Below are positions 41,864-44,800 of a stretch of 64,000 bases of DNA, piece after piece (position 1 is the first letter of the stretch; each line of letters opens with the position of its first letter). The notes beneath the pieces are model-generated. The model had not been told where the DNA came from, ran no database searches, and saw nothing but the letters and a program-made list of their open reading frames with translations. The translations under genes were made by a program, and so were the position numbers. Origin of the DNA: Candidatus Oxydemutatoraceae bacterium (GTDB taxonomy: Bacteria; Pseudomonadota; Gammaproteobacteria; Poriferisulfidales; Oxydemutatoraceae); the NCBI GenBank assembly GCA_965211995.1, contig OZ243040.1:1100249-1164248 (forward strand), in the 5' to 3' direction.

Positions 41864-44800
41864 GACAGTGCTTGTACTTCTTGCCCGACCCGCAATGGCA
41901 CGGGTCGTTGCGCCCGACTTTCGGCTGACTGCGGCGCACGGTTTGAAGCATCGCGCCCGCCTCGGCTTGGCCGTCGCCGCCCGCGCCGCCGGCGACCTCG
42001 GCCACCGCCTCGTTCATCGGCTTGCCCGCGGAGACCATCTCGGCCGCGGCGCGTATCTGCTCGGACGTCAGCCGCTTCGCCATTTTCTTCATCACTTTCC
42101 TCGCCGCCTTTTTCTGGTCGCGCCGCGCGGCTTTGTGCGCCGGCGCCGCGGCCGGGCCGGGCCGGGCGCGTGCGTCCGCCGCCGCGGCGGCGCTTGGAGG
42201 ATGCAGCGCGTCGGCCGCACTGTCGTGATGGTAAGTGACTTGCTCAGGCACCGGGGCTTTTCTTTCCTCGAGATCGTCCTTCACCTTCTCGATCTGTAAC
42301 AAGAACAGGCGCGAGATGAAGTCGTAGCGCACCCGCTGCAGCATCACCTCGAACATTTCAAACGCCTCGCGCTTGTACTCCTGGCGCGGATTGCGCTGCG
42401 CAAAGCTGCGCAGGCCGATCCCCTGGCGCAGGTAATCCATCGCCGCGAGATGCTCCTTCCAGTGCATATCGAGCACTTGCAGCATCAGGATCTTCTCGAC
42501 CTGGCGCAAACGCTGCGCACCGAACGCCTGCTCTTTGGCGCGATGAGCCGCGCGCGCCTGCGCGATGACTCTCTCGGCCAGCGCCTCCTGCCCGAGGTCT
42601 TCGTCGTCGTCGTGCCACTTTGCGACCGGACACGCGAGCGCGAAATCCTGTTGCAGCGTTTTCTCAAGCCCCGCGGCGTCCCAGTCCTCGACCACCACGT
42701 CCGGCGGCAGGCACCGGTCAACCGCGTCGCCGATCACGTCGGGCATGATCGTCTCGACGCTGCCGCCGACGTCGTCGGAGTCCAGCAGTTCGTCGCGCTG
42801 CCGGTAAACCACCTTGCGCTGCTCGTTCGCAACGTCGTCGTATTCGAGCAGCGATTTGCGAATATCAAAGTTATGCCCTTCGACCTTGCCCTGCGCGTTC
42901 TCTATCGCGCGCGTCACCCACGGGTGCTCGATCGCCTCGCCGGGCTGCACGCCGAGTTTGCCCATGATCGCCTTGACCTTGTCGCCGGCGAAGATCCGCA
43001 TCAGGCTGTCTTCGAGCGACAGGTAAAAGCGGCTCGACCCCGGGTCGCCCTGCCGCCCCGAACGTCCGCGCAATTGATTGTCTATGCGCCGCGATTCGTG
43101 GCGTTCGGTGCCGATGATGTGCAATCCGCCCGCGGTGACGACCGCCTCGTGCCGCGCCTGCCAGTCGGCGTCGGCCTGAGCGGCGCCGGATCCAAGACTG
43201 ACCTGCGACGTGGGTCCGTCGTCCTCCGGGGTCCGCCCGCGTCGTCTTTGGTCTTGCTCCCCGCCGGTCGGGCTGCGCCCGGCCGACTCCCCCTCAAGGG
43301 GAGAGTGATTCTCAGCGGCCTGCTCCGCTTCCCTTTGGCGTGCTTCGGATTGGAAGTCGGCTTCGCCCGCGGCGGGTTCGGCATCGGACTGCCCTTCGCC
43401 CGCGACGGGTTTGGCGTCGGCCTGCCCTTCGCCCGCGACGGGTTCGGCATCGGCCTGCCCCTCGCCCGCGGCGGGTTCGGCATCGGCCTGCCCCTCGCCC
43501 GCGGCGGGTTCGGCATCGGCCTGCTCTTCGTCCGCGGCGGGTTCGGCATCGGACGCGCCGCCAAGCACGATGTCGGTGCCGCGCCCGGCCATGTTGGTCG
43601 CGATCGTCACGGTGCACGGGCGCCCGGCGTTGGCGATAACGCGCGATTCGCTTTCGTGGTGCTTGGCGTTGAGCACCTGATGCCCGAGTTGCGCCTTTTT
43701 CAGCAGGCCGGACAGATACTCGGACACTTCTATCGAGGCGGTGCCGACCAGCACCGGCTGTCCCCGCTCCATGCAGTCCTTGACGTCGGCGATGATCGCG
43801 TCGTATTTCTCCTTGGCCGTGACGTACACGAGGTCGCCAAAATCATCGCGCACCATCCGCTTATGGGTCGGGACGACCACGACCTCGAGGCTGTAGATCT
43901 GCTGGAACTCGTAGGCTTCGGTGTCGGCGGTGCCGGTCATGCCGGACAACGTGTCGTAGAGCCTGAAATAGTTCTGGAACGTGATCGAGGCGAGCGTTTG
44001 GTTCTCGCTTTGCACGGCGACCCTCTCTTTCGCCTCAATCGCCTGATGCAGCCCTTCCGACCAGCGCCGCCCCGCCATCACCCGCCCGGTGAACTCGTCA
44101 ACGATCAGCACCTGCCCGTCGCGAACGAGATAGTCAACGTTCTTGCGGAACAAAGTGCGCGCCCGCAACGCGGCGTTGACGTGATGCAGCAGGCCGAGGC
44201 TGGTCAGATCGTAGAGGCTGCCGCCCGGTTCGAGCAATTTGTCGGTCGCGAGCAACTGTTCGATGTGCTCGTGGCCCTGCTCGGTCAGAAACACCTGCTT
44301 GGACTTCTCCTCGATCGTGTAGTCGCCATCGCCATCGCCATCGCCGTCGGGCGCCGGTTGCAGCCGCGCGACCACCTGGTCCACGCGCCGGTACAACTCG
44401 GGCTTGTCATCCACCGAACCCGAGATGATCAGCGGGGTGCGCGCCTCGTCGATCAGGATCGAATCGACCTCGTCAACGATCGCGAAGTCGCGCCCGCGCT
44501 GCACCCGGTACTCGGGCATCAACACCATATTGTCGCGCAGGTAGTCGAACCCGAATTCGTTGTTGGTGCCGTAGGCGACGGCGGCGGCGTAGGCGGCTTT
44601 GCGCTCCTCCGGCCCCTGGCCGGATACGATCACGCCGACGCTGAGGCCGAGGAACTCGTACACCTTGCCCATCCATTCGGCGTCGCGCCGGGCGAGATAG
44701 TCGTTGACCGTCACGATGTGCACGCTGCCGCCGGCGAGCGCGTTGAGATAAGTCGGCAAGGTTGCGACCAGCGTCTTGCCTTCGCCGGTGCGCATCTCGG

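Follow-up and report, generated by a model that had tools for sequence, protein, structure and literature searches.

Can a conserved housekeeping gene be translated straight through a mobile repeat lodged in its own coding sequence? This question is raised by the secA gene in a 64,000-nt stretch of DNA (hereafter the window) from a Candidatus Oxydemutatoraceae bacterium (contig OZ243040.1). The sequence-only reading of the window had proposed that secA is an intact open reading frame (ORF) of 1082 amino acids (aa), and that it carries a palindromic element in frame between two conserved blocks in the variable (VAR) region of nucleotide-binding domain 2 (NBD2), a site regarded as plausibly permissive. 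The analysis described herein makes it very likely that an element resembling a MITE, i.e., a miniature inverted-repeat transposable element, lies in frame in the VAR loop of this housekeeping gene and is translated within a working SecA. In-frame occupancy was found to be a general property of the element family, not one special to secA.

Composition of the enlarged VAR loop

The features of the secA locus on which the argument rests are as follows.

41847..45095, minus strand: secA ORF, 1082 aa, GTG start, zero internal stop codons
43361-43554, minus strand: in-frame tandem array of a 33-nt unit, 5.9 units, 92% matching, SecA aa ~514-578
43185..43361, minus strand: element copy in secA, 177 nt (59 codons), termini GCCGG...CCGGC, read in the frame designated 'rev1', aa 579-637

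As had been claimed, the insert between the conserved blocks was shown to be encoded by an element copy; the encoding segment, at ~43185-43361, specifies the peptide FQSEARQ...SQVSLGS and is one of seven copies dispersed in the window. The insert is situated in the VAR subdomain of NBD2, between helicase motifs V and VI. In a phmmer alignment to the E. coli structure 6s0k, query residues ~514-640 stand in place of E. coli residues ~522-540, and a passage of PMC6620043, citing Das et al. (2012, J Bacteriol 194:2205), assigns VAR, the variable subdomain, to E. coli residues ~519-547 and refers to it as a proposed regulator of SecA activity. In an alignment of 48 SecA proteins, the interval from G513 to W645 spans 131 aa in the window SecA versus 9-30 aa in all 47 others (9-23 aa in the close relatives), a natural variation in length that fits the permissive character suggested for the site. 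The loop thus shares with the SecA VAR subdomain its position between motifs V and VI, its naturally variable length and its native sequence, which is acidic in this clade; it is unlike the VAR of the 47 other proteins in its length and in that the excess arose through a tandem array and a mobile element instead of a gradual divergence of the loop.

The element, meanwhile, accounts for the expansion only in part. The extra VAR length amounts to 108 aa, only about half of which comes from the element, the remainder being supplied by the 33-nt array, which the sequence-only reading did not mention. The array segment has a net charge of -18 and no counterpart in the SecA of any relative. Its last unit is broken by the element (...AEPAAGE[A-element-A]QADADW), unlike the intact units, and the net gain at the element site is 180 nt (177 + 3). 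Because array sequence flanks the element on both sides, the array must predate the arrival of the element. A resemblance between the 33-nt unit and the element terminus, matching by hand at 17 of 33 positions, was judged not meaningful.

Integrity of the secA gene and its product

The 1082-aa ORF was confirmed to be intact. Pfam recovered the full SecA set in its product (SecA_DEAD, PP_bind, P-loop_SecA, SecA_SW, and SEC-C) together with a sub-threshold DEAD-box match in NBD1, and gave no match of any kind in the insert. The protein was 52% identical to E. coli SecA structures in a Foldseek alignment, and it retained 269 of the 269 columns that are invariant across the 47 other SecA proteins of the alignment.

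Structure prediction, which the sequence-only reading had proposed as a check, was performed with AlphaFold2 on the 48-sequence alignment. The resulting model had a mean predicted local distance difference test score (pLDDT) of 70 with a confident core, and the score fell below 50 at residues 517-581 (array) and 594-635 (element); the single weak helix, at residues 579-595 (pLDDT ~61), was placed in the N-terminal part of the element. Superposition on solved SecA structures gave target-normalised TM-scores of 0.83 (E. coli, 6s0k) and 0.89 (B. subtilis, 3jv2). In the model, the core therefore matches solved SecA, and the insert in the VAR loop is predicted to be a disordered excursion upon an otherwise normal SecA.

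A concern already raised in the sequence-only reading was that this secA might be a decaying, non-functional paralogue, with a clean secA elsewhere doing the work. A VAR loop 4-14 times the usual length would suit such a gene, and only 64 kb of the ~1.94 Mb is in view. Against this stand the ORF, intact over 1082 codons, and the invariant columns, which are kept as well as in any SecA of the set. Furthermore, the gene order M23 peptidase-secA-argJ-Nudix/ThiE-like is that of the single secA locus in the relatives, and other single-copy essential genes, e.g., tilS, also carry the element. A single SecA from the 1,943,614-bp contig appeared among the best 120 proteins listed, which is in itself weak evidence. 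Taken together, these observations make a decaying paralogue very improbable.

Apart from the VAR loop, the linker preceding the zinc-binding SEC-C motif at the C-terminus (window 41931-42278, aa ~940-1055) is also long in this clade, at 114-138 aa in the window SecA and six relatives versus 43-75 aa in other gammaproteobacterial SecA. This linker is predicted to contain 2-3 helices, and it did not originate from the 177-nt element.

The element is a MITE-like family with seven copies in the window

Exactly seven copies were located in the 64-kb window by each of three means, namely two independent degenerate patterns and an nhmmer profile, and neither pattern matched shuffled sequence (0 matches). 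Besides the copy in secA, the copies are as follows.

8469..8645, minus strand: copy in frame in the ORF of a DinG-like helicase (8439..10586, minus), aa ~647-706
16332..16507, plus strand: intergenic copy between the tilS stop codon (16517-16519) and the pyrG ATG (16242), with a 1-nt deletion
17513..17689, minus strand: copy in frame in the tilS ORF (16517..17944, minus), aa ~85-144
39303..39481, minus strand: copy at the 3' end of a Nudix-ThiE-like gene, in orientation opposite to that gene
39952..40125, minus strand: copy in frame in the same Nudix-ThiE-like ORF (39463..40605, minus), aa ~160-218, inter-domain linker
45169..45345, minus strand: intergenic copy between the M23 peptidase gene and secA, in orientation opposite to the secA-internal copy

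Four of the seven copies thus lie within genes, one at a gene end where it supplies the stop codon, and two between genes. The element measures 177 nt, i.e., exactly 59 codons, with a GC content of ~70%. Pairwise identities among the six copies that were aligned ranged from 74 to 81%, and the secA copy was 74-76% identical to each of the others. The consensus bears imperfect terminal inverted repeats of ~25 nt, GCCGGATNCAAGTCTGAAGTGCGGCG / GCCGCACTTCGGANCGGAAGNCGGC, and in the consensus fold columns 6-30 pair with columns 158-182 (22 pairs), accompanied by two internal GC hairpins.

The designation as palindromic, accordingly, holds for the consensus with its inverted repeats and hairpins, but not clearly for the secA copy itself. 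The terminal inverted repeats are most eroded in this copy, and its fold was not clearly better than that of shuffled sequences (z -0.5 to -1.8 for the 182-nt element; z +0.14 for 206 nt including flanks). Since no convincing selected RNA fold was obtained, the symmetry is taken as that of transposon-type DNA termini.

Translation of all six frames indicated that no transposase can fit in the 177-nt element. As for target-site duplications, no consistent flanking direct repeat was found around the copies, and one of 2-4 bp would be unrecognisable at ~25% divergence. With neither a target-site duplication nor a parent insertion sequence (IS) to rely on, transposition is deduced from three features, namely terminal repeats, number of copies, and presence or absence among related genomes. 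Rfam gave zero family matches over the whole window, blastn of the element against PLSDB plasmids gave no match, and a search of 185,579 species genomes and of the JGI metagenomes with either DNA pattern yielded no match. A word-indexed protein search with the element peptide came back empty even for the window SecA and is hence uninformative rather than negative evidence. The element is small, devoid of transposase, bounded by terminal inverted repeats, and present as dispersed copies with presence/absence differences, which are traits of MITEs; it is a non-autonomous, MITE-like element.

Beyond secA, each genic copy was accommodated by its host ORF in a distinct manner. In the tilS product (tRNA-Ile lysidine synthetase), the element splits the PP-loop ATPase domain into two Pfam stretches; the corresponding sequence in two relatives (L162 and L163) reads LRVNAAARGGRSPEE, without an insert. 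In the DinG-like protein, the native C-terminus GAAR* resumes after the element, and the copy in the Nudix-ThiE-like linker has a 3-nt, frame-keeping deletion. The copy at the 3' end of the latter gene overwrites its last two codons, such that the ORF ends after 9 codons at the element's own TGA and the protein acquires the tail ...CFDRRPRRVQI*.

Only one reading frame is used within genes

All four intragenic copies were found in the same orientation and in the same reading frame, rev1, and the rev1 peptides from the window copies are recognisably related to each other. The six frames of the element compare as follows.

fwd0, fwd2, and rev0: conserved stops
rev1 (the frame used): open in 6 of 6 aligned copies; hydrophilic peptide, grand average of hydropathicity (GRAVY) -1.0 to -1.6, near neutral charge
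rev2: open in 6 of 6 aligned copies; peptide net charge +8 to +15
fwd1: open in 3 of 6 aligned copies; peptide not hydrophilic, GRAVY 0.04 to 0.48

The indels follow the same logic, the lone genic one being of 3 nt and that in the intergenic copy upstream of pyrG of 1 nt. The differences between copies fall evenly across the codon positions (chi-square p = 0.75), giving no signal of purifying selection on the peptide; hence the frame has been kept, and the peptide sequence has not. The shared frame of the four genic copies is suggestive rather than decisive. From the frame preservation and the same behaviour in three more genes, we infer that the repeat in secA is translated through.

These data also bear on whether the insert might be absent from the mature protein, having been taken out as an intron-like RNA or an intein or skipped in a translational bypass. 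The inverted repeats and hairpins could fold in RNA, and the genic copies all share one orientation. The secA copy nevertheless folds no better than shuffles, and the window lacks any Rfam match. An intein would be expected to show a Hint domain, for which Pfam gave no match, and junctions of the type C/S/T...N|C/S/T, where A...A|Q is found; 59 aa is moreover too short for one. Stop-free genic copies that keep the frame, with a 3-nt deletion in a gene versus a 1-nt deletion between genes, would be needless if the segment were excised. On the basis of junction residues, size, and frame-keeping indels, the intein, intron, and bypass readings were rejected, and we regard removal of any kind as extremely unlikely.

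A scan for terminators, which covered the secA-internal and secA-upstream copies, disclosed a further difference between the two orientations. When transcribed in the fwd sense, the copy upstream of secA presents two terminator-like hairpins followed by T-runs (45243-45303, minus strand), and the secA-internal copy, transcribed in the rev sense, has no terminator-like site. Judging from these predicted sites, the upstream copy could insulate secA transcription, and hairpins of this kind may be a reason why the fwd orientation is not seen inside genes.

The element sites are empty in relatives

For comparison, use was made of a complete 1.85-Mb Ca. Oxydemutatoraceae metagenome-assembled genome (MAG), OZ245010.1 (L001, L162), a Chromatiales MAG (L002, L163), and four further proteins (P0004-P0007); the tilS region of the relatives was retrieved with tilS as bait. 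Identity between the SecA of the relatives and the window SecA is 78-84% when only the best aligned segment is counted, and 75-79% across the whole alignment. The alignment with close relatives that had been proposed earlier gave a clear result: in all six (L001, L002, P0004-P0007), SecA is 966-989 aa in length and has no element insert.

A second gene order, dnaE-accA-tilS-pyrG...dinG, is likewise conserved in the relatives, which allowed the other sites to be inspected. Six of the seven element sites, namely those in secA, tilS and the DinG-like gene, the two in the Nudix-ThiE-like gene, and that in the M23-secA spacer, were compared and all six were empty. For the seventh, the tilS-pyrG spacer, L162 was the one relative viewed; its spacer is shorter, and the profile scan detected no copy in it. 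The nhmmer element profile, in addition, was run over 225 fetched loci (3.05 Mb in total, ~70 kb of it from the nearest relatives) and found no copy. The element copies are thus insertions that spread after this lineage had parted from the Ca. Oxydemutatoraceae and Chromatiales relatives sampled here.

The relatives of the host are sponge symbionts (PMC11685487), and genomes in the clade measure ~1.7-2.1 Mb. This small-genome, host-associated setting parallels that of Rickettsia, and the source organism presumably shares the way of life of its relatives.

Carriers elsewhere on the contig and a derivative of the secA copy

An index-free HMMER profile search with the element peptide identified six further proteins, all encoded on the same 1,943,614-bp contig as SecA. 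One of them, P0121, is described below; the others are as follows.

P0123: riboflavin synthase (ribE), element in frame, aa 83-141
P0124: GspB-like protein, element in frame
P0127: class II aminoacyl-tRNA synthetase-like protein, C-terminal part, element in frame
P0122 and P0128: two short ORFs consisting mostly of element sequence

P0121, 409 aa long, has an N-terminus resembling a signal peptide, and a 79-aa unit is repeated in it 3-4 times in tandem. The unit comprises the element peptide and DEGRAVADWWAWHEAVVAAGA, ~20 residues that match SecA just downstream of the insert, near motif VI; the P0121 segment ADWWAWHEAVVAAG lines up with the SecA sequence downstream of its insert. Compared with the SecA insert plus its native downstream flank, the units show 63-64% identity over 87 aa, and they carry the QVS variant, which within the window is unique to the secA copy. 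Because the pattern DWQ.RH..V is universal in SecA, the direction of copying was from secA to P0121. It looks as though the secA-resident copy, together with ~60 nt of secA, was copied elsewhere and then amplified.

The secA-derived units in P0121 also argue for an old insertion in secA and against an error of assembly. The reading as an artefact of assembly or consensus, in which a repeat copy was misplaced into the secA of a metagenome-assembled genome, would have in its favour that repeats are classic sites of misassembly and that the source is apparently a single 1.94-Mb contig absent from the DNA collections searched. The secA copy, however, is 74-76% identical to the other window copies and hence was not pasted from one of them; its frame is exact, with array sequence on both flanks; the same clean in-frame pattern recurs in three other genes; and the diverged derivative with flanking secA sequence lies elsewhere in the genome. 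An artefact is accordingly considered hardly credible.

A further reading gives the insert a role in SecA itself. If exapted, the element peptide and the acidic array would form an enlarged regulatory VAR lid or an interaction module kept by selection, in line with the regulatory role proposed for VAR in the passage cited above (PMC6620043, citing Das et al. 2012). The secA element peptide has drifted to a net charge of -6, versus +1 to +3 in the other genic copies, matching its acidic VAR context and the -18 array; its N-terminal part is modelled as a helix, if at low confidence (pLDDT ~61); and the copy is old enough to have a derivative of 63-64% identity elsewhere in the genome. The charge shift, however, concerns one copy only, most of the insert has pLDDT below 50, and the even codon-position variation bears no sign of purifying selection. 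No relative has an orthologous insert by which conservation could be judged. We consider such an exaptation unlikely, and favour a tolerated insertion translated within a working SecA.

Other repeats in the window

Three further repeat-bearing regions were observed, as listed below.

2078-2899: 137-nt tandem array of 4-5 units with 93% matches, between a pepA-like gene (639-2126) and valS
11069-11414: 173-nt direct duplication, 87% identical, over the 5' end of ispF (YgbB, 10635-11153, minus strand) and upstream sequence
30896-32489: ORF with collagen-triplet and RCC1-like repeats (120-nt DNA repeats), a eukaryote-like repeat protein

The 137-nt unit is not a multiple of three and overlaps only a spurious N-terminal extension of the maximal valS ORF. 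Eukaryote-like repeat proteins have been reported from sponge symbionts.

A proposed course of events

The proposed course of events is as follows. One copy of the element landed in the VAR loop of NBD2, inside the short acidic tandem array. With its rev1 frame free of stops, it would encode a peptide rich in G/P/E/R, hydrophilic, and disordered by prediction. Since the length of the element is a multiple of three, a rev1 copy in a surface loop, linker, or tail would leave the host protein folded and so would escape purging, while any copy differing from this in frame or orientation would meet conserved stops and would survive only between genes or at gene ends. SecA would then be made with a floppy NBD2 excursion of ~125 aa, comprising 65 aa of array and 60 aa of element. 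Das et al. (2012) reportedly tied VAR to the ATPase activity of SecA and to its release of ADP. The effect of the insert is probably neutral, or else a mild shift in the regulation of ATPase activity and ADP release ascribed to VAR. By analogy with what has been argued for the Rickettsia palindromic elements (RPE), the simplest reading of the frame bias would be selective retention of harmless insertions.

Several points weigh against this account. At ~70% GC, the openness of one frame over 59 codons is unsurprising, and given three mostly open frames, the chance that four of four copies share one is ~1/27 to 1/81. Folding energies lend the palindrome little support (z +0.5 to -2.4 across copies), the RNAalifold covariation term is unfavourable, and neither a target-site duplication nor a parent IS was found in the 64-kb window. 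Translation and function of SecA with the insert are inferences, and a second, clean secA could lie outside the 64 kb of the genome in view.

Comparison with known coding repeats

RPE were reportedly described by Ogata et al. in 2000 (Science 290:347). They resemble the present family in being small repeats with terminal inverted repeats found both between and inside genes, in having intragenic copies fused in frame in conserved housekeeping genes where they contribute a family-specific peptide, and in their large intragenic fraction (19 of 44 for RPE-1 versus 4-5 of 7 here). Small genomes (~1.9 Mb here) and fold-compatible sites are also common to both, the latter being here the VAR loop of SecA, the inter-domain linker of the Nudix-ThiE-like protein, and the C-terminal tail of the DinG-like protein. 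RPE insertions lie in frame in Rickettsia genes, and an RPE-containing guanylate kinase (gmk) is translated and active (PMC10969869, PMC2229807); the effect on an RPE host protein has thus been tested experimentally, whereas the present case is known from sequence alone.

In other respects, the two systems are clearly distinct. There is no sequence homology between them, and the element profile found nothing in the fetched Rickettsia/Rickettsiales loci (L221, L222). The host here is a gammaproteobacterium near Ca. Oxydemutatoraceae, not a member of Rickettsiales, the element is longer (177 nt at ~70% GC versus 105-146 nt), and it has a derivative, P0121, with a captured secA fragment in tandem units. 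The family is therefore a new, non-homologous example of RPE-like coding repeats.

Intragenic MITEs are known elsewhere, such as ERIC/IRU, the 107-bp Correia/NEMIS, the Anabaena MITEs, and Coxiella QMITE1, and the same reviews single out RPE for frequent in-frame insertion in conserved genes (PMC2229807, PMC10969869). Like the present element, these MITEs are non-autonomous, have terminal inverted repeats and an open frame fused to host ORFs, and include variants stopped in all frames that remain intergenic. The fusions described for them occur in conserved protein genes and also in ORFs that are hypothetical or encode transposases or membrane proteins, whereas here internal insertions in core essential genes (secA, tilS, ribE) are found and make up the majority of the copies seen; nor are TA termini or a target-site duplication recognisable in the present family. 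PARCELs are likewise coding repeats with dyad symmetry that are mobile within genomes, but they consist of 25-residue amphipathic tandem units in membrane or surface ORFs of unknown function and are not single 59-codon insertions into housekeeping enzymes. The REP/BIME extragenic palindromes (20-40 nt, intergenic only) were rejected as an identification, the element being 177 nt in length and mostly intragenic.

Implications

The fate of the secA copy in P0121 hints at an element-driven shuffling of pieces of host proteins. It is possible, and is offered tentatively as more doubtful than probable, that the genome hosts an independent, dense, Rickettsia-like system of 'protein-coding selfish DNA' that also redeploys fragments of host genes. 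If this is true, P0121 would be a prokaryotic analogue of Pack-MITE transduplication, in which new proteins are built.

Palindromic repeats that colonise conserved genes in frame have been treated as a near-peculiarity of Rickettsia. The present family provides a second, unrelated case in a different bacterial class, with a different element and at ~70% rather than ~30% GC. This suggests a general outcome, arising where weak purifying selection is combined with an element that has a translation-compatible length and one suitable frame. As natural insertion mutants, SecA (VAR loop), TilS (PP-loop domain), and riboflavin synthase mark sites in these proteins that tolerate ~60 disordered residues.

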